From: an uncultured cyanobacterium
Lineage (GTDB): Bacteria; Cyanobacteriota; Cyanobacteriia; Cyanobacteriales; Nostocaceae
DNA: 64,000 bases
Assembly: GCA_963706595.1 (NCBI GenBank)
Contig: OY970166.1
Coordinates: forward strand, 1,856,001-1,920,000
Direction of reading: 5' to 3'
Each line of letters starts with the position of its first letter. The first letter of the stretch is position 1. This document shows positions 4,775 through 63,021 of this stretch, piece by piece. The position numbers were made by a program, and so were the translations under genes. A model generated the notes under the pieces. That model was not told the origin of the DNA. It did no database searches and saw only the letters and a list, made by a program, of their open reading frames with translations.

Positions 4775-5437
4775 TTAGGTAAGAGATAATGGTTGATGGC
4801 TGTTTTGGGCTTTTGCTAGCAGCTGACGAACTTGATCATCTGTTGTTTGGGGAAAGTCTTCGTACCATAAACCCACACTATAAAAGGGGTCGGGTGTGGC
4901 AACGCAGACAATTTCATCCACCGCAACTTGTAACTCTTGGCAAGTGGCGCTAGCCGCTACGGGTACAGCAATGACAATTTTCGCGGGGTGCTGTCGCCGC
5001 ACAGATGCTACCGCCGCCCACATAGTTGCACCTGTGGCTAAACCATCATCTACTAAGATGACTATGCGTCCTTCTAAATCCAGGTCAGCGCGATCGCCTC
5101 GATAAAGACGTTCCCGACGTTCTAATTCTCGTTCTTCTTGCGCCGCTACTCTAGCAATTGTGTCTTCGGAGATGTTCACCAAGTTGATAATATGTTCATT
5201 AATAATCCGGACTCCGCCGGATGCGATCGCCCCCATTGCCAGTTCTTCTTGTTCAGGCACACCCAGTTTACGCACCACCAGCACATCTAAGGGTGCATTT
5301 AAGGCTTTGGCAACTTCAAAGGCAACTGGTACACCACCCCTGGGTAGAGCTAATATGATCGCATCTGAGCGATTAGCATAGTCTGCTAACTCTCCGGCTA
5401 AAATTTGACCTGCTATTATGCGATTTTTGAATAGCAT
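4775..5437 (-). CDS. Phosphoribosyltransferase family protein
   Basis: LALPRGGVPV, VRKLGVP, PRPP-binding loop VILVDDGLATGAT. Confidence 0.92.
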   Translation of the reverse strand: MLFKNRIIAGQILAGELADYANRSDAIILALPRGGVPVAFEVAKALNAPLDVLVVRKLGVPEQEELAMGAIASGGVRIINEHIINLVNISEDTIARVAAQEERELERRERLYRGDRADLDLEGRIVILVDDGLATGATMWAAVASVRRQHPAKIVIAVPVAASATCQELQVAVDEIVCVATPDPFYSVGLWYEDFPQTTDDQVRQLLAKAQNSHQPLSLT

Positions 5438-37421: not shown

Positions 37422-38660
37422 ATGCAGTTGGTCGAACGGCATATAATTCAACGAAATCATCCCCACTATCAAGAGATTGATCAGTTATGTTTTGCTGCTA
37501 AAAACCTCTACAATTATGCTAACTTCCACATCCGCCAAAGTTTTATCCTGACTCAAAAATATCTAGACTACAATCGTTTAGCTAAACAATTAAAATCTAC
37601 AGAACCATATCAAGCTTTACCCGCCAAAGTCGCCCAACAAGTATTATTAGGATTACATCGCAACTGGTTAAGCTTTTTTGCAGCAATTCAAGTATATACA
37701 GCAGATAAAAGCAAGTTTTTAGGCAGACCAAAATTACCCAAATATAAACACAAAGACAAGGGCAGACATTTATTAGTTTACACAGCCCAGTCTGTGAGTA
37801 AACCCAAAATGAAAGCTGGTGTAATTCATCTGTCAAAAACACAAATTGATATTCCAACAAAAGTAGAGTATGTACATCTAAATCAGGTGAGAATTGTCCC
37901 AAAACTTGACCATTATGTGCTAGAAGCTGTGTATGAAAAAGAGGAATTAGATCATGATTTAGACTCTAATGCTATAGCCGCGATTGATTTAGGCATAGAT
38001 AACCTAGCTACCTTAACATCTAACCAGCCTGGGTTTTTACCAGTTCTGGTTTCGGGGAGAATTATCAAATCCATTAATCGTTATTACAATCACAGAAAAG
38101 CTAAATTACAATCTTTACTACCAAGTCATCAAAAGACATCTAAACAACTGCAAAGTTTAACTAAAAAACGGAATTTTCGAGTTGATGATTATCTACATAA
38201 AGCCAGTCGGTTAGTTATTGACCATTTAGTGAAGCAGGGGGTTGGGACTTTAGTAATTGGTCAAAATCCCCTGTGGAAGCAAAATGCTAATTTGGGTAAA
38301 CGAAATAATCAAAACTTTGTTTGTATTCCGCATAATCGATTCGTACAGCAGTTGATTTATAAAGCGAAATTAGTGGGGATAAAGGTATTGGTTTCTGAGG
38401 AGTCTTACACCAGTGTGGCTTCTTTTTTAGACCAAGATATTATTCCTACCTATGGAAAAGCTGATGCGAAAGAAGTTAAATTTAGTGGCCGAAGAATCAG
38501 AACTAAGCTTTATAAAGCAGGTAATGGTAAACTGATTCACGCTGATGTCAATGGTAGTTTGAATATCTTACGTAAAGTAGTCCCGACAGCATTTAGTCTA
38601 GGGATAGGGGGCGTTGTAGTTCGCCCTGTCGGGATTATTCCCGGCAAACAAATGGCATGA
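37422..38660 (+). mobile_element. tnpB: Solo IS200/IS605-family TnpB (IS1341-like, no TnpA)
   Basis: KNLYN, PKLPKYK, AIDLGIDNLA (RuvC-I), DYLHKAS, EESYTS, HADVNGSLNI (RuvC-III). Confidence 0.9.
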
Positions 38661-46982: not shown

Positions 46983-47533
46983 TTAGACAGTGGTAATGTC
47001 TATTTCTTTTTCTGCTAGTAAGTCATCTATTTTGGCAGTGTACTTCTTTGTGAGTTTTTGCAGTTTATCTTGTTGGTCTTTGGATTCATCTTCAGAGATT
47101 TCTGAAGCTTTTTCCTCCTTGCGAATGGAGTCTTGGACATCGCGCCGGATATTGCGAATAGCTACGCGTCCTTCTTCAGCATACCTTCTAGCCATGTGGA
47201 CGAATTCTTTCCGGCGCTCGCTTGTCAATGGTGGTATATTTAGCCGAATCACAGCACCGTTGTTACTGGGTGTTAAACCTAAGTCAGACAGGGAAATTGC
47301 TTTCTCTACTAGCTTTAAGCATGCCTTTATCGAAAGGCTGAACCCAGATGCTTCTGGCATCTGGCGTGGTAATGTTTGCCAGTGACTTTTAAAGGTGTGG
47401 GTGAACCGTAGTAGTCCACCGAGACCTTATCTAGTAAACTCGCATTGGCGCGGCCAGTGCGAATAGTGTTAAAAGCTCGTTGAGTTGCCTCAACGGTCTT
47501 TTGCATTGTACTCTCAGCTTCAGATAATTTCAC
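46983..47533 (-). CDS. frr: Ribosome recycling factor, broken by two +1 indels (~47390, ~47311)
   Basis: [42 protein letters not shown]; corrected length 182 aa; follows pyrH. Confidence 0.93.
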
Positions 47534-48248
47534 ATGAACCTCCCACAAGGGTACCGATTTTTTCTCCCAATACAGCACGGCGGACGTTACCTCGCACCGT
47601 TAAATCAAAAACCAGGATTGGGATATTATTTTCTTTACACAAGGCGATCGCTGTACTATCCATAACGCGCAAATCTTTCGCTAAAACGTGCGCGTAGGTG
47701 AGACTGGTGTAACGCTTGGCCTCTGGATAAATATGGGGGTCAGCATCATATATTCCGTCTACCTTAGTGGCTTTAAAAATCACCTCGGCATCAATTTCTG
47801 CGGCTCTTAAGGCTGCTGCGGTGTCAGTCGTAAAGAAGGGATTTCCTGAACCTGCACCAAAAATTACCACCCGCCCTTTTTCTAGGTGGCGGATAGCGCG
47901 ACGACGGATATACGGTTCCGCTAATTCTTGCATAGCGATCGCGGTTTGTACCCGCGTCTGTACCCCAATTCGCTCTAAGCAATCTTGTAGCGTCATGGCA
48001 TTCATTACCGTGGCAATCATCCCTATGTAGTCAGCAGCTGCCCTGTCCATCCCCGCCGACGCAGCTTTAACGCCACGAAAAATATTCCCACCGCCGACGA
48101 CGATGGCGATTTGAACGCCGGTGGCTACCACCTCTGCTACTTCCTCGGCTATTTCCTTGACCACTTCTGGATCAATACCATAGCCCATGTTGCCCATTAA
48201 GGCTTCACCGCTTAGTTTAAGTAAAACCCGCCGGTAATTCGTTCCCAT
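47520..48248 (-). CDS. pyrH: UMP kinase
   Basis: [31 protein letters not shown]. Confidence 0.97.
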
Positions 48249-50415: not shown

Positions 50416-50661
50416 TTAGAACCAGCGACCGGGACCCCAGCCACCGAAGCCACCGCGACTCCAGCCACCGAAACCGGGACCCCAGCCACCGCGACCAGGA
50501 CCGAAGCCGCCGCGACCAGGACCCCAGCCACCGAAGCCACCGGGACCCCAGCCACCGCGACCGGGACCCCAGCCACCAAAACCGTAGCCACCAGAAACAA
50601 GCTGCTGTTCCTCTGCTGATAAATCCATCAACAAATCAGATTTCAGGTTTTGAACTGACAT
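50416..50661 (-). CDS. Double-glycine-leader secreted peptide P1 (Gly/Trp/Arg repeat core)
   Basis: MSVQNLKSDLLMDLSAEEQQLVSGG|YGFGGWGPGRGGWGPG...; TGAGG RBS. Confidence 0.85.
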   Translation of the reverse strand: MSVQNLKSDLLMDLSAEEQQLVSGGYGFGGWGPGRGGWGPGGFGGWGPGRGGFGPGRGGWGPGFGGWSRGGFGGWGPGRWF

Positions 50662-51169
50662 AATTTTCACCTCAAATTCGTCAATAGGTGGTACGAACAC
50701 ACGTAAAAAAACATGGGAGTGTTGTACCTATGCTTTTATTTCTATACGTATTTTCTAGTGATTAAATTGCCCTATAGTTATAAATAAATTCCCAGTAAAT
50801 ATATCCTTTGACACAGGCAAAAATTAGTTTTCACTGAAATATCAGTTTTTCTGAACCTTACGAAAAAATTATATTTATGAATTTCAACTAATTTAATTTC
50901 ATTTTTGCTTTTTATCCTGCTATTTTGAGGAGTTTCTTTCAATCTAAATACAAAAATATTCTGATGGAATTAGAAATAATCTTTATAACTTCAGAAAGAG
51001 GAAGACAATAAATCTGAGAGGATGTTTGCTCAAACATAAAATATATTAAAAAACCTCTCTCCTCATAGGAGAAAGGGTTTAGATATCCCAGTTTTTTTTA
51101 GGAAGATAGGATAAGTCAGGTTGCGAGGAATTTGATATTTATTACTAAGAAATTACCCACTCAGCGCTA

Positions 51170-51406
51170 TTAGAAACCGCCAAAAGGATTGGCAGGAGGT
51201 CCACCAAAAGGACTGCCCCCACCGCCACCACTAGTTTGTCCAGTAATGAAGCCAAGAATTGTAACTGGGAAACTCTGACCGCGCGAATCAGTGAGATTAC
51301 CAGTAACGATAATATCAGGACGACGTGCTTGACCCCCAGATATAAGTTCTTGTGATTCTGCGGATAAATCCACAAATAAATCAGGTTCAATTGTTTTGTG
51401 CGACAT
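51170..51406 (-). CDS. Double-glycine-leader secreted peptide P2
   Basis: MSHKTIEPDLFVDLSAESQELISGG|QARRPDIIVTG...; TGAGG RBS. Confidence 0.85.
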   Translation of the reverse strand: MSHKTIEPDLFVDLSAESQELISGGQARRPDIIVTGNLTDSRGQSFPVTILGFITGQTSGGGGGSPFGGPPANPFGGF

Positions 51407-51568
51407 AATTTTTGCCTCAAATTATTACATAAATTTTAGGTAGCACCCATGCCAGAAAATTTTCTGGTTGGGTGCAAAATCATGGTTCAAATTTTACGTT
51501 TGACCGTAAAAAACCTGCTGATTAGACAAGACTATTGGCGAAGTAGAAATCATGCTAATACTTAGTCT

Positions 51569-51820
51569 TTATTTAATGACTTCAAGAGTACCAGTCAAGC
51601 GGATTGGAACACTAATCACACGTTTCCTACGGCCGCCACGCTCCCTAGTTGGAGATCCAAATTCTGGCTCGTCAAATTCTGAATCGCCAAATTCTGGTCT
51701 TGAACCGCCAAATTCTGGTTCTGAATCGCCAAATCGCATATTTTGTCCGCCTGCTAAAAGCTCTTGTTGTTCTGCGGATAACTCTTCAAACAAATCTGTT
51801 TTGGTGATTTGGGATAACAT
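51569..51820 (-). CDS. Double-glycine-leader secreted peptide P3 (PEFG repeats plus basic patch)
   Basis: MLSQITKTDLFEELSAEQQELLAGG|QNMRFGDSEPEFGG...; TGAGG RBS. Confidence 0.85.
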   Translation of the reverse strand: MLSQITKTDLFEELSAEQQELLAGGQNMRFGDSEPEFGGSRPEFGDSEFDEPEFGSPTRERGGRRKRVISVPIRLTGTLEVIK

Positions 51821-52087
51821 ACTTTTGTACCTCACTTACTTAATATAGGTGTGGAATCACCTATGTTTTTATTATTAACTATTAGCGAATTTATTAAATT
51901 ATGCGGAGGTTAGAAACTTAGAAATTAATTTTACTTCTTTAGACTCAGGAAAATAATTTTTCTGGAGTTTCTTATATTTTTATATATTAGGAATAAAACT
52001 TAGAAACCCGACTTCTTTTAGACCTCCAGAAGGTTGCTTACTGGAGGTTAGAAGACGGGGGATTGAGCATTTTTGTCCGATGCTTAT

Positions 52088-52405
52088 TTATGAAAATAAT
52101 CCACTTATAGCTTTGGCTATGAAATCGTTTATGCTATTAGTATTAAAACTAAAACTAGGTAATCTGAACGTTGTAGATGATGCCATAGTAATCTGTGATA
52201 AAGTGTATTTAGTACTTTGAGAACCAGATTCATCATCGGCAAGATTTAAATTATTATTTGCCTCAGTTTCAATGTCAGTTTTCTGAAAGAAAAAATTACT
52301 GGTTCCGAGTATACCGTCGCTTTGCCCACCAGCTATATTTTCTTGTTCTTCTTCAGTCAAAGTCTGGAAAAGAAATGAATTTTTTGATATATGATTTTCC
52401 CACAT
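52088..52405 (-). CDS. Double-glycine-leader secreted peptide P4
   Basis: ...LFQTLTEEEQENIAGG|QSDGILGTSNFFFQKT...; starts 30 nt after the transporter stop. Confidence 0.8.
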   Translation of the reverse strand: MWENHISKNSFLFQTLTEEEQENIAGGQSDGILGTSNFFFQKTDIETEANNNLNLADDESGSQSTKYTLSQITMASSTTFRLPSFSFNTNSINDFIAKAISGLFS

Positions 52406-52435
52406 GATATTACTTGCTCACACCAGGATAAATTG

Positions 52436-54604
52436 TCAGAGTGATAAAAACTTTTGATGTTCTCCTTTTTCTGCCATAAAAGTCTCTGGAGTTCCTTGTA
52501 AATGGACTTCACCTTTTTCTAACATCACAATCCAATCGGCTCGCTTGACAACGCTGGGGCGATGGGTAATTAAAATCGTAGTTTTGCCTTTGCGGGATGC
52601 TAGAATGGCATCTAAAACGCTAGCTTCACTCACTGGGTCGAGTCCGGCTGTGGCTTCATCTAAAATGAGGACAGGTGGATTAGTCATAATTCCTCTAGCG
52701 ATCGCTAATCTTTGTCTTTGTCCACCAGAGAGATTCGCCCCAAATTCACCCAACACAGTTTGATACTTACTGGGAAGTTGACTGATAAAGCTATCTGCAT
52801 CCGCAATCTCGCAAGCTTTGACAATTTCCTCAAAAGAAATATAGGGCGTTCCTAAACGGAAATTCTCTAAAATCGAGCGACTCCAAAAATGAGGTTCTTG
52901 GGGGACATAAACTATTTGTTGTCGGAGACAATCCAGGGCGATGTCATCGAGGTTAAACGAGCCAATGCGGATATTACCGGAATTTGGCTGATATAAACCT
53001 GCTAAGAGTTTGGCTAAGGTACTTTTACCACAACCAGATTTACCAATCAAGGCGATCGCTTGACCACCGGGTAACTTGAGAGAAAAATCTTCTAACAAGT
53101 CAACTCTACCAGGATGGTGAAATGTCAGATGAGAACAATGAATATCTGCACCGCCGGAAATTTGCGCCACAGGCTTTTGACTACCTCCCACCACCTCCGG
53201 TGTCGCATCAATCACTTCTAAAAGCCGAGAAACTGCTGTTTGAGAGCGAAAATATTCATCGACTAAACCCACTAAGGAATTAATTAAACTCAGAACATTC
53301 ACCTGTAGCACATTAAAAGCCAACATTTGCCCGATACTTAATTCTCCCTGAATCACCAAGATACTTCCTAACCCCAATAAAGCTACAGCACCAATACTCG
53401 AAAGCAGTCGAGAAAGAGTATTGTTAATAATTCCGATTTGTACAGTGCTAAACGTTAGATTAGCTAGACGACCAAAACGACTTTGAAATTCTTCCCAAAA
53501 TTGGGGCGCAGCATTTGTGGTTTTCAGTACCTGTGCGCCCTTAAATGTTTCTACCAACACCCCTTGATTTTCTGCCCCTAACACTAAAAGATTGCGAGTT
53601 TTTTGTTGGAGGATAGGTAAAAAAGGCAGAGTAGATAAAGTCATTAAAGCACTAATTACCAGAACTGCTAATGTGAGTTTCCAACTATAAAACAGCATTA
53701 AGCAGAAAGAAATTACTGCAATGAAAAATTTACTTGGTAAAAGCACGACTATCTGTGATACCAACTGGTTAATATGATTGATATCTCGTAATCGGCTAGT
53801 GATTTCACCACTCCGGCGGGCTTCGTAGTAATTTAAAGGTAACTGGAGCATTTTCCGCCCAAATTCCAAAACAAGCCCTAATTGCAGTCGTTGACCAAAG
53901 TGAGCAATCATTGTTGATTGCAGTAATTGTAAAGTGCTGCTAAATACAGTCATAACTACAACTGCGGCGACGACAACAGTTAGTAGTTGGACATCTCCGC
54001 GCACTAAAACATCATCTGTGAGAATTTGGATAAGTATTGGAGAACCCAAAGCCAGTACACCCAAAGCAATATTCAGCATTAAAACCTGAGTCAGCAAACC
54101 ACGATAAGGCAAAATCCGCTTTAAAAAGCGTCCAAAGCCACCCATTGGTTTGTCTTCGGGCTGATCAGAAAAGCGGTCTGGATCTGGCTCCAGTAAGAGC
54201 ATCACGCCATTCCAAGCGGCTGTTAACTCTTTGCGGTCAACATAACGAATACCCACAGAGGGGTCAGCAATTACATATTTTTTGCCTTGTTGGTTATATA
54301 AAACTACCCAGTGATAACCATGCCAATGGATAATGGCTGGTAACTGTACTTCTTTGATTCTGTCGATAATTTCTGGCGAAGCTTTAACGGCTCTAGCATT
54401 AAAACCCAAATTTTCGGAGCCACGTTTTAGACCTAACAACGTAGTTCCTAGTTGTCCAGTTCCTACAGATTCTCGACTGCGATTAATGCTTAAAAATCGA
54501 CCGTAATGTTTGCTAATTGTTGCCAAACAAGCTGCTCCACAATCTTCTTCGCTTAATTGTGAAACGCACGGATAGTTTTTCTGAAGTTTGATTAAACCAA
54601 ACAT
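52436..54604 (-). CDS. Peptidase C39-containing ABC transporter (PCAT)
   Basis: QLSEEDCGAAC (Cys), YHWVV (His), IADP (Asp); TM domain; GKSGCGKST, LSGGQRQR, ILDEAT, ITHR. Confidence 0.96.
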   Translation of the reverse strand: MFGLIKLQKNYPCVSQLSEEDCGAACLATISKHYGRFLSINRSRESVGTGQLGTTLLGLKRGSENLGFNARAVKASPEIIDRIKEVQLPAIIHWHGYHWVVLYNQQGKKYVIADPSVGIRYVDRKELTAAWNGVMLLLEPDPDRFSDQPEDKPMGGFGRFLKRILPYRGLLTQVLMLNIALGVLALGSPILIQILTDDVLVRGDVQLLTVVVAAVVVMTVFSSTLQLLQSTMIAHFGQRLQLGLVLEFGRKMLQLPLNYYEARRSGEITSRLRDINHINQLVSQIVVLLPSKFFIAVISFCLMLFYSWKLTLAVLVISALMTLSTLPFLPILQQKTRNLLVLGAENQGVLVETFKGAQVLKTTNAAPQFWEEFQSRFGRLANLTFSTVQIGIINNTLSRLLSSIGAVALLGLGSILVIQGELSIGQMLAFNVLQVNVLSLINSLVGLVDEYFRSQTAVSRLLEVIDATPEVVGGSQKPVAQISGGADIHCSHLTFHHPGRVDLLEDFSLKLPGGQAIALIGKSGCGKSTLAKLLAGLYQPNSGNIRIGSFNLDDIALDCLRQQIVYVPQEPHFWSRSILENFRLGTPYISFEEIVKACEIADADSFISQLPSKYQTVLGEFGANLSGGQRQRLAIARGIMTNPPVLILDEATAGLDPVSEASVLDAILASRKGKTTILITHRPSVVKRADWIVMLEKGEVHLQGTPETFMAEKGEHQKFLSL

Positions 54605-54667
54605 AATTTAATTCGTAATTCGTAATTCGTAATTCGTAATGCCCCTTTTCTACGCAATATAGACTTG

Positions 54668-56185
54668 TTAGAAATCTGTGATTAATCTGGCTTTGCGGAG
54701 AATGAAATTAAGTACGGTTTCTTGTCGGGAAATAATATCAGCGCGACCTTTCATTCCTGGTTGTAGCTGACATTGATGATTGTCTGTACCTACATAAGTG
54801 GTTTCGGCTTCTATGGTGGTTTCGTAGCCGACTGTCTGGGTAGCCCCTGGAACACCTGGCTCGGTGCTGTTATTTCCCATTGGGAGGGCATCTGGGGCAA
54901 CATTTTTGACTGTCCCGTGGAGAGTACCGTAGTTGGGATAAGGACAAGCTGAAACCTGCATCTGCACTTTTTGCCCAGGTTTTACTTTGTCGATGTCTTG
55001 AGGCTGGACAAATGCTTTGATCACCATTGGAGTGTTGACGGGCGCAATTTGAGCAATAGCTTGACTTGGTTGTACTACCTGACCAGGATGACGCAGATTT
55101 AATTGCAACAGTGTACCTGTGATTGGCGCTCGAATTACAGTTTGATTCAGGTCAATTCCTACCTGTTGTAGTTCTTTGCGCGATCGCATAGCTTGTTTTT
55201 CCAGTTCTAGACGCTGTTGAAGGAGGGTTTCTCGTTCTCTGTTCAAAGCGGCTAAGGTAGATTTACCACTGGCTTGTTCTTGTTTAATTCGTTCTGAGGC
55301 TATGGTGATAGCTGCGTTATGAGGATTGATATTATTTTGAGCTTTTTCGAGTTTGATTTGGGCAATTTTTAAGGCTTGTTCTTTTTCTGAGAGCAAATCT
55401 TTAGCGTTAGCTTTGGCTTGTTCTAGCTTGGCTTGGGCTGATTTTACTTCCTGTTGTTTTTCCTCCAATAAATTGCGCGAAATTGCTCCGGATGCGACTA
55501 CTGATTGTAAGCGATCGCGTTGCTTTTTTGCTAAATTTAAAGCTAGTTCGGCTTCTTGTACGGTTGCAGTTAATAAGTTATTTTGTTGTAGGCGATCGCG
55601 TTGTAATTTCGCTAAATTCCAAGTAGCTTCGGCTTCGGTCAAATCAGCCATAGTTGTCATTTGCTGGTCTTCATAGTTGCGCTGACTCGCACTGAGTTCG
55701 GCTTGTGCGGCGATTATTGTGCGGTTAAGTAAGGTTCTTTGAGCCGCAATCTGAGTGGCAATATCAGCAATTTGAGCATCAATTTGGCGCAGTTGTAATT
55801 GACTCTGTTCAATACTATTTTCTAGTTGGCTTTTTTGATTTTGCAACCGTGAATCATCAATGTAAGCAATGGGTTCTCCTTGTTTGACTACCTGATTTTC
55901 TTGCACATCTATTTTCTGCACTGTGCCAATTACGGCAGATTGAACTATTCCTAGTTCTCCTTCTGGTCGAATAGTCGCCGGAACTTTGACTGTGACATTA
56001 TAACTAAAAACAGATGTGAGACCAGCCGCCGCCATAAATGTCATTAGCAGAACTCCAGCGCCGATGTTTGTCCATTTACTGATGCGGGGAAGAAACTCGT
56101 GAGGTTCAACTAAACTGAGTTCTTCTGGTGTCGGTTCATTAAACCGATTCCAAAAATTGTTGTCTTGTTGGGGAAAGGAGTTCAC
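54668..56185 (-). CDS. HlyD family membrane-fusion adaptor
   Basis: TM helix, lipoyl-like V.ENQ.V..G, long coiled coil, IRAPITG, YG.L.G.V, LQPGM. Confidence 0.95.
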   Translation of the reverse strand: MNSFPQQDNNFWNRFNEPTPEELSLVEPHEFLPRISKWTNIGAGVLLMTFMAAAGLTSVFSYNVTVKVPATIRPEGELGIVQSAVIGTVQKIDVQENQVVKQGEPIAYIDDSRLQNQKSQLENSIEQSQLQLRQIDAQIADIATQIAAQRTLLNRTIIAAQAELSASQRNYEDQQMTTMADLTEAEATWNLAKLQRDRLQQNNLLTATVQEAELALNLAKKQRDRLQSVVASGAISRNLLEEKQQEVKSAQAKLEQAKANAKDLLSEKEQALKIAQIKLEKAQNNINPHNAAITIASERIKQEQASGKSTLAALNRERETLLQQRLELEKQAMRSRKELQQVGIDLNQTVIRAPITGTLLQLNLRHPGQVVQPSQAIAQIAPVNTPMVIKAFVQPQDIDKVKPGQKVQMQVSACPYPNYGTLHGTVKNVAPDALPMGNNSTEPGVPGATQTVGYETTIEAETTYVGTDNHQCQLQPGMKGRADIISRQETVLNFILRKARLITDF

Positions 56186-56539
56186 TGTACTCTACCTTGG
56201 GTTTGATTGGGAGGGTTTGATTGGGATAAATTAATTGGGTTGCTAACTACATCTTGGGCAAATATTGGGAAAAAAAAGTAAAACGGTAACAGAAGATGCT
56301 AACGGCAGCTAACATCTGGTTTATGATGTTGTATAATTAGGAATGGGGATAAAGAAAGGAGTACACTATGTACGCCAATATCCTTTCTCAAGTATCTAAC
56401 GTGGATAACGCTTAGAAACAACAGAGGAGAATGCTCAAACTTTCTCAAAGTCCTCACTTACGTTGAGCGAGTCATAACTATCTCCTCTCCCCCCTTTTCT
56501 CGGCATTATTTAACAGGTTGACGTTGAAAACAACAGAAA

Positions 56540-56678
56540 AAGTATATGTAGGGCGTGTTACGGCTTTAGCCTAACGCACCGTCTTCTGTGGTCTTGGTGC
56601 GTTACACTTCGTGATAACACACCCTACTGGCTACTGGCGTGACTACGTACATTTCATAAATCAAATATGAGTCCTATA
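56540..56678. mobile_element. MITE/REP composite copy (empty inner site)
   Basis: Shares AAGTATATGTAGGG...GCACCGTCTTCTG and the TIR AATCAAATATGAGTCCTATA with 658-911. Confidence 0.7.
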
Positions 56679-56684
56679 GCAAAA

Positions 56685-56972
56685 TCAACTGTTGAATTGA
56701 TTCAATACTTCAAAGTTGGCAAGAGCCGGAAATTCTGTAGGTTCACTAGATAAAAAACTTGTGGCGTTAGAATTTACATCAGCAAGCTGAGTATTTGATG
56801 CCGAAGAGTTTCCTTCTAGACCAGAATCACTTGATTTTGTAGTATTTGCAGTTCCTTGAGCGAAACTATTGTCTTTGAGTTGATAGTTAACACCACCAAC
56901 CAGTAATTCCTGCTGTTTATCGGATAATTCTAATTCTGCAAACCAATCGGATGTGATGATTTGATGTGACAT
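56685..56972 (-). CDS. Double-glycine-leader secreted peptide P5 (divergent paralog of P6/P7)
   Basis: MSHQIITSDWFAELELSDKQQELLVGG|VNYQLKDNSFAQ...SGLEGNSS... Confidence 0.85.
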   Translation of the reverse strand: MSHQIITSDWFAELELSDKQQELLVGGVNYQLKDNSFAQGTANTTKSSDSGLEGNSSASNTQLADVNSNATSFLSSEPTEFPALANFEVLNQFNS

Positions 56973-57417
56973 AATTATTCGCCTCACTGACAATCAACTC
57001 CAATCTAATTTGGCATGATTGTTAGTCTCACTTACATAATCCTCAAAAAAAGGATTCCAGAAACTGACCTGTGGATGCAGTTTATCCTGAGTATTCGGCT
57101 CAATAATCAAGTTGTGTAAACATTAATCACACACAGAAAGCTCCGGAATCCGTTACAGCACTTCCCGGTGTTATGAGGTACAAAAACCCCACCCCCAACC
57201 CCCTCCCCGCAAGCGATGAGGGGGCTACGATGTACCTTATATAATTGGAAATCGCTGTATTACTGCAATTTTGAGTAACCAGATAATCAACACTTCTGGG
57301 AATCATCAATTATTCAAGTTAGCAATTGCAGATGTCTTTAGTAGTTTGTCAAAGTATTTTTCAGAGTTCGATTACCCATTAATTTCAATTTGACAAACTA
57401 CGAGAGCGGATTGGATA

Positions 57418-57713
57418 TTATTGTCCGTTACCACCGCCACCGTTAAGGACTGGTGCAGCGCCCAAAGCCTCAACGTCAGGAACTGATTCCGCACCCAATC
57501 CCATCAAGTCTTGCGCCGCAGTGTTAATGGCTGTAACGTCACCTGTGGAGTGGCAGTACTACCATCTGGACCTGAATTGGCTGTACCTTGTAAATTTGCT
57601 ATTCTGTTAGCGAAATTGCTCCCAGCTAGCTCAAAGTCAGCCCCGCCAGCTACGAGTTCTTGCTGCTCGTCGGATAATGCAAGACACAATTGTGATACGA
57701 TATTCTCTGTCAT
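57418..57713 (-). CDS. Double-glycine-leader secreted peptide P6 (paralog of P7); 1-nt deletion at ~57551
   Basis: LSDEQQELVAGG|ADFELAGSNF...GPDGS; adding one base restores ...TGDVTAINTAAQDLMGLG...APVLNGGGGNGQ-stop, colinear with P7. Confidence 0.82.
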
Positions 57714-58099
57714 GATTGTTAGCCTCATTGACGTAATTCTTAAACAAAAGATTCCAGATACTCACTTGTTGATCAGCCAAAATAAACTGGCAAGAAAATT
57801 CTGGAATTAAAGCCTACTTTCCACGCTTGAGAACAGGAAACCCAGATTGCTTCATTAGTTCAGCGCCACCATATTTCCTGAAGAAACTCACCAGGGCGAT
57901 CTCTGCAATAGTTGAGTTATTCGAGATCACAATTGTAGTTTTTGGGTAAGGTCAGGAAGACACAATTACACTGCTGATTCGGAGAATAACCCCCATGCAC
58001 CATTTGCTACTGTGATGGATGAAATAATGCTTTAATGTGACAGATCAGCTTTCCGGGTCAACTGTAGAAATGGTTTAGTGGTTTGGCTGGTTGAGTTGA

Positions 58100-58426
58100 T
58101 TAACCTTCGCCTTCACCACCACCACCACCACCACCATTACCACCGCCACCGTTAAGGACTGGTGCAGCGCCCAAAGCGTCAATTGAAGGAACTTCTGCTG
58201 CACCTAATCCCATTAAGTCTTGTGCCGCAGTATTGATAGCGGTAACGTCACCTGTGGAGTTGGCACTACTACCATCTGGACCGGCATTACTTGTGCCTTG
58301 TAAATTGGCACGTCTTTGAGAGAAGTTGCTACCAGCTAGTTCAAAGTCAGCACCGCCAGCTACAAGTTCTTGTTGATCATCAGATAAAGTAACAAACAAT
58401 TCTGATGTAAATATTTGATGTGACAT
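58100..58426 (-). CDS. Double-glycine-leader secreted peptide P7
   Basis: MSHQIFTSELFVTLSDDQQELVAGG|ADFELAGSNFSQRRANLQG..GPDG...poly-Gly tail. Confidence 0.87.
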   Translation of the reverse strand: MSHQIFTSELFVTLSDDQQELVAGGADFELAGSNFSQRRANLQGTSNAGPDGSSANSTGDVTAINTAAQDLMGLGAAEVPSIDALGAAPVLNGGGGNGGGGGGGEGEG

Positions 58427-59760: not shown

Positions 59761-60048
59761 ATGAAACTATTATTCATTTGGTTGATTAAAGGTTACAGAA
59801 TGTTTATTTCGCCCCTGTTTCCCCCGACTTGTCGCTTTCAACCAACTTGTTCAATGTATGCTATTGAAGCCATTGAGCGATTTGGGATTTGGCGCGGTGG
59901 CTGGATGGCGACTCGGCGGATTTTGCGTTGTCATCCCTTCCATCCTGGTGGATATGATCCAGTTCCAGAGGCGACAAAGCATTGCTGCGATCATCATCTG
60001 CCAAATTCCGGGAAACAGACCACAGAAGACCATCACCAAGGCTCGTAG
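59761..60048 (+). CDS. yidD: Membrane protein insertion efficiency factor YidD
   Basis: [35 protein letters not shown]. Confidence 0.93.
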
Positions 60049-61536: not shown

Positions 61537-61542
61537 TTGAAT

Positions 61543-61941
61543 ATGATAGTTCAGGATTATCTGACAGAAATAAAAGCTAAATTAATTACCAGTTCGATAA
61601 TTGATAAAATTTCTATTGTTAAAGAAAGAGCATTATCCGATCAAGGTTATTTTCGCGCAAGATTGAATTTAACGAATGGTGATTTTTTAGAAGTGGTGGA
61701 ATTTTTTAAAGTCAAGGGAGATCAATGTATTACAGAAACCTATCGTTATCAATGGATGGATGGTAATAGAACCCAGTTAAGAAAAAGATGGGATAATGTA
61801 GAGCATTTTCCTAATTTACCAAATTTTCCTCATTATGTCCATATTGAGGAAGAATCTTATGTTTATGCAAGTGTTTGTAGGAATATTTTAGAAATAATTG
61901 ATTTAATTAGTCAACAAATTACATATAGGAATCCGATTTGA
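61543..61941 (+). CDS. DUF6516/TumE-like putative toxin
   Basis: Y.YQW......L..RWDN..H.P....FPH.VH motif. Confidence 0.72.
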   Translation: MIVQDYLTEIKAKLITSSIIDKISIVKERALSDQGYFRARLNLTNGDFLEVVEFFKVKGDQCITETYRYQWMDGNRTQLRKRWDNVEHFPNLPNFPHYVHIEEESYVYASVCRNILEIIDLISQQITYRNPI

Positions 61942-62442: not shown

Positions 62443-63021
62443 TTATGCTTTAACTGCGGATACTTGTTTGCGTTTGCGAAGTGAAGTGACACCAAAAGCA
62501 CCCAAGCCCAAGATACCCATGAGAGTAGTGGGTTCGGGAACAGAAGCTACTGAAGCTGATGTAAAAGTAAGAGTGGAACTATCTAAATCTCGAACTCCAC
62601 TAGCTCCCAAATTAGCTGCATTCAAAGCATCAAGGAAACTACTACCTCCTACAAAGCTGCTGTTTAGTGATAAAGCCGTACCGCCATTAATCAAACCAAA
62701 AAATGCAGTACCAGCTAGATTAATTTGCCCACCAACTACGGAAAATACGTTTTCAAGACTACCTGATGATAAATCGTTTATTGGTGCAGTCAACCCTAGA
62801 CCACCAGGAAGAGAGGTTATGATCACACTGGTGGCAGCAAATGTTCCATCACCATCTGCTAATTCAATAGTTCCTTCGACATTACCATTAACTGCGCCAT
62901 TCTCATTGGAAAAACTAAAATTAAAAATAGCCGCTTGTGCTGTTCCTGCAAAACCCAGAGCGATTACTGCTGCTCCGGCGGTAGCCATTGATAACTTTTT
63001 CAATACATTTACGGTAGTCAT
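62443..63021 (-). CDS. PEP-CTERM sorting domain surface protein
   Basis: Signal peptide ending AQA; VPEP, TM helix, RKRK tail. Confidence 0.92.
   Translation of the reverse strand: MTTVNVLKKLSMATAGAAVIALGFAGTAQAAIFNFSFSNENGAVNGNVEGTIELADGDGTFAATSVIITSLPGGLGLTAPINDLSSGSLENVFSVVGGQINLAGTAFFGLINGGTALSLNSSFVGGSSFLDALNAANLGASGVRDLDSSTLTFTSASVASVPEPTTLMGILGLGAFGVTSLRKRKQVSAVKA

Follow-up and report, generated by a model that had tools for sequence, protein, structure and literature searches.

A group III-type export locus with seven double-glycine precursors in a Nostocaceae genome, and its possible role in cell-surface or matrix material

The window analyzed here is a stretch of 64,000 nucleotides of contig OY970166.1 (assembly GCA_963706595.1, positions 1,856,001 to 1,920,000 of the forward strand) from an uncultured, Nodularia-type cyanobacterium of the Nostocaceae, and positions are counted from its first letter. 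Window positions 50416 to 58426 contain nine minus-strand genes, transcribed in the order P7, P6, P5, HlyD, PCAT, P4, P3, P2, P1. They encode a short-type peptidase-containing ABC transporter (PCAT), a HlyD-family adaptor and seven small proteins (P1 to P7), all of which begin with a leader of 24-27 amino acids (aa) that has GG at its end. Judged by its genes, this locus is an ordinary, well-conserved member of group III, an already catalogued type of cyanobacterial 'bacteriocin' cluster. We tentatively favor the view that its products are co-assembling surface or matrix proteins and not dedicated toxins, and a microcin-like role is nearly as likely. A matrix role is not a new idea, being the already published proposal for the Anabaena counterpart of this locus. 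The initial annotation of the region, in which an intact PCAT and HlyD are flanked by seven same-strand GG-leader genes, was confirmed, with P6 cut short.

The PCAT contains Peptidase_C39 (residues 11-142), ABC_membrane (174-435) and ABC_tran (504-653) domains by Pfam, with no cNMP-binding match, and residues 8-717 of its 722 align to PCAT1 (PDB 4ry2) with an E value of 8.6e-113. It retains a Q-x5-C motif (VSQLSEEDCGAACL), a His...Asp pair (HWVVL...ADP), and the Walker A, signature and Walker B motifs. The Q-x5-C and His...Asp residues are taken by us, after ComA and PCAT1, to be the catalytic residues of the C39 domain. The adjacent adaptor matches TIGR01843 (E value 5.3e-47), HlyD_3 and HlyD_D23, and because two OEP/TolC-like genes exist elsewhere in the genome an outer-membrane partner is at hand. 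By analogy with type I secretion through PCAT, HlyD and TolC, the C39 domain would remove the leader by a cut after GG, and the PCAT, the HlyD protein and an unlinked TolC-like channel would carry the hydrophilic cores of 45-83 aa out of the cell in one step and unmodified. From what is known of these families, we have high confidence that the proteins would be exported along this route after cleavage; with PCAT, HlyD and leaders intact, the same export reading in the initial annotation stands. The core lengths given there, 53-83 aa, were too narrow at the lower end, P6 being shortened by a frameshift.

A hidden Markov model (HMM) was built from the seven locus leaders and used to search 86,150 stop-to-stop open reading frames (ORFs) of at least 30 aa in the 5.57-Mb genome, a scan that the initial annotation had proposed. 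There were 10 matches at E<0.05 genome-wide, seven of them the locus leaders themselves (E values from 5e-15 to 8e-12, with 1.1e-12 for P1), which bears out the shared leader described earlier; the remaining three lie as orphans at 516843, 528694 and 2028688 of the genome. The clustering of leader-bearing genes at this locus is far beyond chance. A GAGG Shine-Dalgarno-like motif lies 8-11 nt ahead of the ATG in six of the seven small genes, P4 being the one without it. The core of the first orphan (G000:C1:516843-517025; L029 ~4838-5026, plus strand) is rich in Arg and includes two Cys, and its acidic tail reads FDDFDDDF. This orphan lies directly upstream of genes for a Rieske/PaO oxygenase and a TauD-family dioxygenase, two candidate tailoring enzymes. 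The other two orphans (G000:C1:528694-528930 and 2028688-2028906) have cores that pair charged blocks, one ending in a poly-Glu run, and their neighbors are housekeeping genes (FecCD ABC transporter, DnaJ; SDR, helicase).

The cores differ strongly in composition. In the 56 aa core of P1, Gly makes up 54%, aromatic residues 25% and Arg 9%; the core has GWGPGRGG-like repeats and a net charge of +5. P2 has a conserved RPDI(I/T)V.G.L.DS.GQ..PV.I.GF block followed by a Gly-rich tail ending in GGF, while P3 consists of a variable acidic low-complexity region and then a conserved basic C-terminus, RV..(I/V)PIRLTG.LEV.K. The P4 core is rich in Ser, Thr and Asn, and the 83 aa core of P7 ends in a poly-Gly/acidic tail. 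Net charges of -4 (P4), -5 (P5) and -7 (P7) are complementary to that of P1, as had been claimed. Also as claimed, all seven cores are free of Cys. They also lack any hydrophobic segment of membrane-like character, the highest 19-residue Kyte-Doolittle mean being at most 1.11.

Membership in the CTB family was assigned with NCBIfam NF038167 at its curated cut-off of 32 bits. P7 (89.5 bits), P6 (68.1 bits) and P5 (48.8 bits) score above it, while P1 to P4 miss it (20.2-25.9 bits, with 25.1 for P2), and what signal they give comes mostly from the leader. Since a core-only hhalign comparison of P5 with the P6 and P7 cores also gave a probability of 94% (E value 1.3e-7), P5, P6 and P7 are placed in one CTB family. 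The name, given in the initial annotation for P5-P7-like proteins, is thus correct; it stands for 'cyanobacterial tandem bacteriocin' and is also used for Pfam PF28158 (release 38.1). P7 has 74 homologues, all with PF28158 in precomputed tables; the named ones, which come from Nodularia, Anabaena, Umezakia, Sphaerospermopsis and Trichormus, are called CTB family bacteriocin. The eight homologues of P2 are all named hypothetical, and the same tables place PF28158 on five of the eight P2-type and on three of 17 P4-type matches. The P4 family comprises 63 representative clusters at E<=1e-3. Ten of 40 scanned representatives pass the NF038167 cut-off, yet core-only hhalign of P4 with the CTB cores gave a probability of 1.2%, and P4 is therefore placed on the margin of the CTB family. 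P2 and P3 have in common a short (F/V/I)P(V/I)(T/R)(I/L).G motif; kinship between them was rejected, core-only hhalign giving a probability of 0.9% in spite of it. In the ESM Atlas, the P7 core found only its own CTB clusters (0.81-0.83) and the P1 core found no usable match. By these sequence comparisons the cargo falls into about five types (P1, P2, P3, P4 and CTB), in keeping with the earlier count of at least four unrelated types, except that P5, P6 and P7 belong together in a single family.

Pfam and NCBIfam scans of the genes between the a/b-hydrolase and VTE5-like flanks found no LanM, YcaO, radical-SAM or P450 domain, which agrees with the initial annotation, and no SurA, S8 or M16 peptidase or second ABC transporter. 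Across ORFs in ~30 kb around the locus there was likewise no tailoring domain for RiPPs (peptides made by ribosomes and modified after translation), and no sensor kinase or receptor gene was linked in the 30 kb scanned. YcaO had no match genome-wide; a genome search for DUF4135 (LanM) also had none, but no control genome matched either, so that this is not proof of absence. The lack of an evident immunity gene noted earlier also held up. When spacer ORFs of at least 25 aa were called membrane-like at a 19-residue Kyte-Doolittle mean above 1.6, none of the 20 combined membrane-like character with intact conservation throughout the genus. One reached a mean of 1.77 and was intact in only three of eight loci, and none of the 20 was intact in all eight relatives.

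Ten same-genus genomes were compared, and an orthologous PCAT (90-97% identity) was found in nine of them. Eight of these nine loci were fetched for comparison, with G008 left out for its short contig. All seven cargo genes, in the same order and with the same flanks, are present in seven of the eight, while the most divergent one (G007) has five cargo genes and is without P4 and P5. P1 is found in all eight, with varying repeats. The flanking genes encode PyrH, an AhpC-like protein and the a/b-hydrolase on one side, and the VTE5-like protein and YidD on the other. The VTE5-like gene, which the initial annotation took for a polyprenol kinase, has no Pfam or NCBIfam match at E<=0.01 here, but the gene at the counterpart position in Nodularia spumigena CCY9414 encodes a SEC59/DGK1/VTE5 family protein. 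In three other genera the cluster occupies the same site between hydrolase and VTE5-like genes, with a PCAT that is ~80% identical and cargo that is partly different: additional or broken copies of CTB genes, peptides with WRGGW/FRRG repeats, others rich in Cys and Lys, and one His/Gly/Tyr-rich peptide. The CTB core is strongly conserved across genera. At one such site in another genus (G012, L019 3929-4626), CTB genes stand in tandem in five or more copies, of which two are frameshifted after ~24 core residues; completeness and contamination of that assembly are put at 93% and 6%. At E<=1e-5, NF038167 matched 9 of 201 genomes sampled evenly across the order, mostly as tandem arrays of 2-7.

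The ratios of nonsynonymous to synonymous substitution (dN/dS) were calculated pairwise within the genus by the Nei-Gojobori method; the pairs are not independent. Core values were 0.34-0.46 for P1, P2 and P4 to P7, and leader values were 0.16-0.52. The P3 core gave 0.85, with acidic repeats that align poorly and an uncertain alignment. On these values P1 to P7 are genuine, moderately constrained genes, and overall there is no sign of diversifying selection.

Expression data exist for a row of genes in N. spumigena CCY9414 (Santoro et al. 2023, PMC9846622, supplementary Table 1) that has the same order as our locus; this counterpart was matched by gene order and annotation only. All genes of the row were expressed in all 12 samples, which covered four conditions, and in that table none was phosphate-responsive. 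The transporter gene had a normalized expression of ~2e-4, and values for the first CTB gene (the P5 position) lay between 2.4e-3 and 6.5e-3, ~10-30x above the PCAT gene. Of 30 bins of the locus, 25-29 are covered by RNA-library contigs of a relative, a weak hint of expression there. In one metatranscriptome a 505-nt contig over P5 had a word depth of 1922 and transporter-gene contigs had 3-4, depths that are unfit for ranking genes. Sequencing runs matching the locus yielded contigs only. No run held half of the sampled words, and therefore no habitat is claimed.

P6, a paralogue of P7, has a 1-bp deletion near 57550 when compared with P7 and with the eight other same-genus loci fetched, all of which have a P6 that is intact, at 97-108 aa. 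DNA similarity between P6 and P7 persists for more than 100 nt past the deletion in the other frame. RNA-library contigs of a relative have an extra base behind the T at 57550, and DNA contigs of runs X1 and X2, which span the site, have one gap each somewhere. The published CCY9414 table lists no frameshift for the middle CTB gene, in contrast to P6 of this assembly. About 3 kb past the P1 end of the locus, the essential gene frr (ribosome recycling factor; window 46983-47578, minus strand) falls into two ORFs because of two 1-nt insertions, one near 47321 and one near 47386, that all eight same-genus relatives lack. This split is probably an assembly indel error, which lowers our trust in other frameshifts of the genome. 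Because of these nearby insertions and a genome completeness of 94%, compared with ~99% in most relatives, the frameshift in P6 may be an assembly error as well.

What the exported proteins do outside the cell is a matter of weighing possibilities. In the scheme that we tentatively favor, the anionic, beta-prone CTB-type proteins (P4 to P7) would assemble outside the cell, and either these or anionic sheath polymers would bind the cationic Gly/aromatic/Arg protein P1 and P3, which is first acidic and then basic; this assembly is the weakest step of the scheme. Indirect support comes from the fixed seven-gene order at a syntenic site, the lack of an immunity-like ORF, the hydrophilic cores with their complementary charges, the absence of positive selection, and the precedent of the EbfG proteins of Synechococcus elongatus, which are compared below. 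The strong conservation of the CTB core across genera, the transcription of the CCY9414 row and the beta-hairpin modeled for P4 (see below) are further points on this side. Going further, one can speculate that bloom-forming Nodularia inherit the seven proteins together as a fixed kit from which an extracellular material of protein is built, in which P4 to P7 polymerize and P1 and P3 glue them to each other or to anionic sheath polysaccharide, giving a multi-component functional amyloid or coacervate that is unrelated to curli or Fap and leaves the cell by type I secretion; in this full form we think the idea unlikely. Nothing was found that links the locus to either sheath or akinete coat.

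Several observations weigh against a role in surface or matrix material. Structure prediction with AlphaFold2 (AF2) gave no usable fold for the P7 precursor (69-row alignment, mean pLDDT 54.6, pTM 0.20), and the P4 model is also of low confidence (mean pLDDT 61.2, with blocks at 65-78). The P4 model has a long two-stranded beta-hairpin of ~24 residues and a C-terminal helix; Foldseek found nothing in the PDB at E<=0.001, and the top rows (E>=0.08, TM <=0.25) are stem hairpins inside oligomeric pore, barrel or ring assemblies, a weak likeness that should be regarded as a match in shape only. A complex prediction for four copies of the P7 core gave no answer (score 0.02, mark 0.42) and is used neither way. 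In one same-genus genome (G004, 4.7 Mb) the hydrolase and VTE5-like genes are 113 bp apart with nothing between them, a clean natural loss, so that the locus is dispensable in that species. The P1 slot is fast-evolving (52-80% identity), and its occupants in other genera are cationic peptides, rich in Arg/Trp or in Cys/Lys, that resemble antimicrobial peptides. NF038167 matched none of 14 control genomes, S. elongatus included, so that the CTB proteins are not detectably EbfG homologues by this model. The accessible text of PMC9846622 describes a paralogous CTB operon of N. spumigena that is induced by phosphate starvation and that its authors read as allelopathic. In the literature found, neither secretion nor processing nor assembly was shown for CTB-type proteins. 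Finally, a 2026 paper (PMC13188072) shows that the class II microcin MccAB1 of Acinetobacter baumannii acts as a toxin and also forms biofilm amyloid, and matrix and toxin roles are therefore not exclusive.

It is possible, and on balance somewhat unlikely, that the locus encodes a cocktail of unmodified class-II-microcin-like bacteriocins directed against related cyanobacteria or other bacteria. Class II microcins are exported by the same combination of GG leader, PCAT and membrane fusion protein (PMC13188072), and both NCBI and Pfam name the CTB family bacteriocin. However, no report of antibacterial activity of CTB proteins was found, the two papers with the name 'CTB family bacteriocin' only quoting the annotation, and searches for 'cyanobacterial tandem bacteriocin' and 'tandem bacteriocin' had no literature match. 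P1 is a cationic protein with much Gly, Trp and Arg, its slot in other genera holds the WRGGW/FRRG repeat or Cys/Lys-rich peptides, and the acidic block that is paired with a basic one in P3 and two of the orphans could resemble a neutralizing pro-piece; on the other side, no core has a membrane-like segment. In favor, the locus was lost in one of ten genus genomes; against, it is syntenic and of fixed order across genera and not strain-variable, and dN/dS is below 1 throughout. The phosphate-starvation induction of the paralogous operon fits a toxin, while the failure to find a spacer ORF that is both membrane-like and conserved does not. In the portion of PMC13188072 available, the true immunity gene of MccAB1 is a hidden 56-aa membrane ORF. 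For our locus, immunity would have to be intrinsic, encoded elsewhere, or unneeded where the targets are other taxa, and some peptides could be both toxin and matrix component.

Two other explanations are less probable. It is quite improbable that the peptides are extracellular signals, or condition-specific nutrient- or metal-binding peptides, that report cell density or filament or bloom state. PCATs do export quorum-sensing peptides in Gram-positives (ComA was among the matches of the search that gave PCAT1), the long PCAT HetC is reported to drive differentiation in Nostoc (PMC10986499), and the paralogous CTB operon responds to phosphate. But cores of 45-83 aa in seven co-retained types are big and many for signals, no linked sensor kinase or receptor gene was found in the 30 kb scanned, and the same-order CCY9414 locus is not phosphate-responsive. 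ProcM-type enzymes that act in trans on many precursors are known in cyanobacteria, and the leader type here is common to ten genes of the genome, one of which, orphan 516843, precedes the two oxygenase genes. Even so, RiPP precursors modified in trans by enzymes that recognize the shared leader are a very improbable explanation, given that the locus has no tailoring domain, its cores have no Cys, YcaO and DUF4135 had no match in the genome (the latter in a search without positive control), and group III, as defined in the part of PMC3140520 available, holds only transporter, HlyD and precursors.

Group III/CTB clusters are common in heterocyst-forming cyanobacteria and have been called 'bacteriocins' since 2011, with no activity reported for one. 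If the Nodularia locus makes surface or matrix material, it would bear on the aggregation of toxic Baltic-type blooms, and a widely used automatic annotation would be misleading. The analysis adds no new mechanism; it adds handles for testing, namely the fixed seven-gene order, the natural clean deletion, the turnover of cargo and a P5-type gene that is the highest expressed.

The genes of the locus and of its CCY9414 counterpart are collected in Table 1. Within the locus, the HlyD gene is 63 nt upstream of the PCAT gene, and P4 starts 30 nt past the PCAT stop codon. Scans for promoters and terminators were not above shuffled controls (16 promoter-like elements with 19.1 expected, and 10 terminator-like elements with 7.0 expected); one terminator-like hairpin lies 3' of P1 and one 3' of P2. 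Short dispersed repeats occupy locus spacers at 56544-56676, ~54604-54640 and 57153-57235. The first of these, a 133-nt element directly 3' of the P5 stop, is missing from the contigs of runs X1, X2 and X20, has 44 more full or partial matches in the genome, and looks like a miniature inverted-repeat transposable element (MITE).

Table 1. Genes of the locus (window positions) and of the matching row in N. spumigena CCY9414 (locus tags)
Feature	Position or locus tag	Strand	Length	Matches	Genome
P1, GG-leader precursor	50416-50661	minus	81 aa		this genome
P2, GG-leader precursor	51170-51406	minus	78 aa		this genome
P3, GG-leader precursor	51569-51820	minus	83 aa		this genome
P4, GG-leader precursor	52088-52405	minus	105 aa		this genome
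PCAT, short-type peptidase-containing ABC transporter	52436-54604	minus	722 aa	Pfam, NCBIfam	this genome
HlyD-family periplasmic adaptor (membrane fusion protein)	54668-56185	minus	505 aa	TIGR01843, HlyD_3, HlyD_D23	this genome
P5, divergent CTB-family precursor	56685-56972	minus	95 aa	NF038167	this genome
P6, CTB-family precursor, 1-bp deletion	57504-57713 as assembled, ancestral frame to 57418	minus	69 aa		this genome
P7, CTB-family precursor	58100-58426	minus	108 aa	NF038167	this genome
a/b hydrolase	NSP_RS06245				N. spumigena CCY9414
four hypothetical proteins	NSP_RS06250 to NSP_RS06265				N. spumigena CCY9414
peptidase-domain ABC transporter	NSP_RS06270				N. spumigena CCY9414
HlyD	NSP_RS06275				N. 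spumigena CCY9414
three CTB family bacteriocins	NSP_RS06280 to NSP_RS06290				N. spumigena CCY9414
SEC59/DGK1/VTE5 family protein	NSP_RS06295				N. spumigena CCY9414

Several other genes lie in the surroundings of the locus. The YidD gene (DUF37; TIGR00278, 88.5 bits; window 59761-60048, plus strand) adjoins the cluster. In the part of their paper available, Wang et al. 2011 (PMC3140520) name DUF37 proteins near such clusters as possible precursors; the YidD beside this locus is an ordinary membrane-insertion factor. Past the YidD end are a TumE-family toxin-domain gene (window 61537-61941, plus strand) and a PEP-CTERM protein gene (window 62443-63021, minus strand). An IS605 OrfB/TnpB-like gene, with OrfB_IS605 and a Cas12f1-like TNB domain, is found at window 37422-38660 on the plus strand, ~12 kb from the locus.

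Among characterized transporters, PCAT1 of Clostridium thermocellum has the same three-domain layout as the locus PCAT. PCAT1 belongs to a Gram-positive host and operates without a HlyD/TolC duct, whereas the locus PCAT is paired with a HlyD protein. Class II microcins (MccV and MccE492 types, and A. baumannii MccAB1) share with the locus a GG leader, a PCAT and a membrane fusion protein, and, like the predicted locus products, they are unmodified, Gly-rich, smaller than 10 kDa and secreted with TolC. They differ in that a small two-helix membrane immunity gene stands by the toxin, of which none was found at the locus, and in that the locus cores are without a membrane-like segment.

The EbfG1-4/PteB system of S. 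elongatus is the one cluster of this layout that has been characterized. Its layout, as given in PMC12267927, is that of the locus, with GG-motif small proteins encoded next to a C39 ABC transporter and HlyD, and both are without tailoring enzymes. The EbfG proteins are cell-surface and matrix proteins (available text of PMC9981879 and PMC4997328), and EbfG1-3 formed amyloid in a heterologous assay (PMC9981879, same limit). Their function in matrix and amyloid is known from experiment, while the CTB cargo is known here from sequence alone. Olivan-Muro et al. 2025 (PMC12267927, as far as accessible) proposed that Anabaena asr5139-alr5148 encodes EbfG-like amyloidogenic matrix proteins, and stated that mutants are still needed for that cluster.

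The comparison that fits the locus best is with group III itself. In the portion of the paper available, Wang, Fewer & Sivonen 2011 (PMC3140520) divided cyanobacterial 'bacteriocin' clusters into seven groups, of which group III consists of a short PCAT, HlyD and precursors only, 3.9 of the latter on average, with the Nostoc 7120 cluster at alr5148 as an example; the count given there for group III is two clusters for N. spumigena CCY9414 and one for S. elongatus PCC 7942. From this count of one and the matching layout, we take the S. elongatus cluster to be EbfG1-4/PteB. Our locus has the marks of the group: a short C39 ABC transporter without an N-terminal CAP_ED domain, an adjacent HlyD gene and arrayed GG precursors. 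Like group III clusters such as Nostoc 7120 asr5139-alr5148, it is without LanM, SurA, S8 peptidase and a second ABC transporter. It does not differ from them in kind, and is set apart by its precursors, which number seven, fall into about five types and include one that is frameshifted in this assembly.

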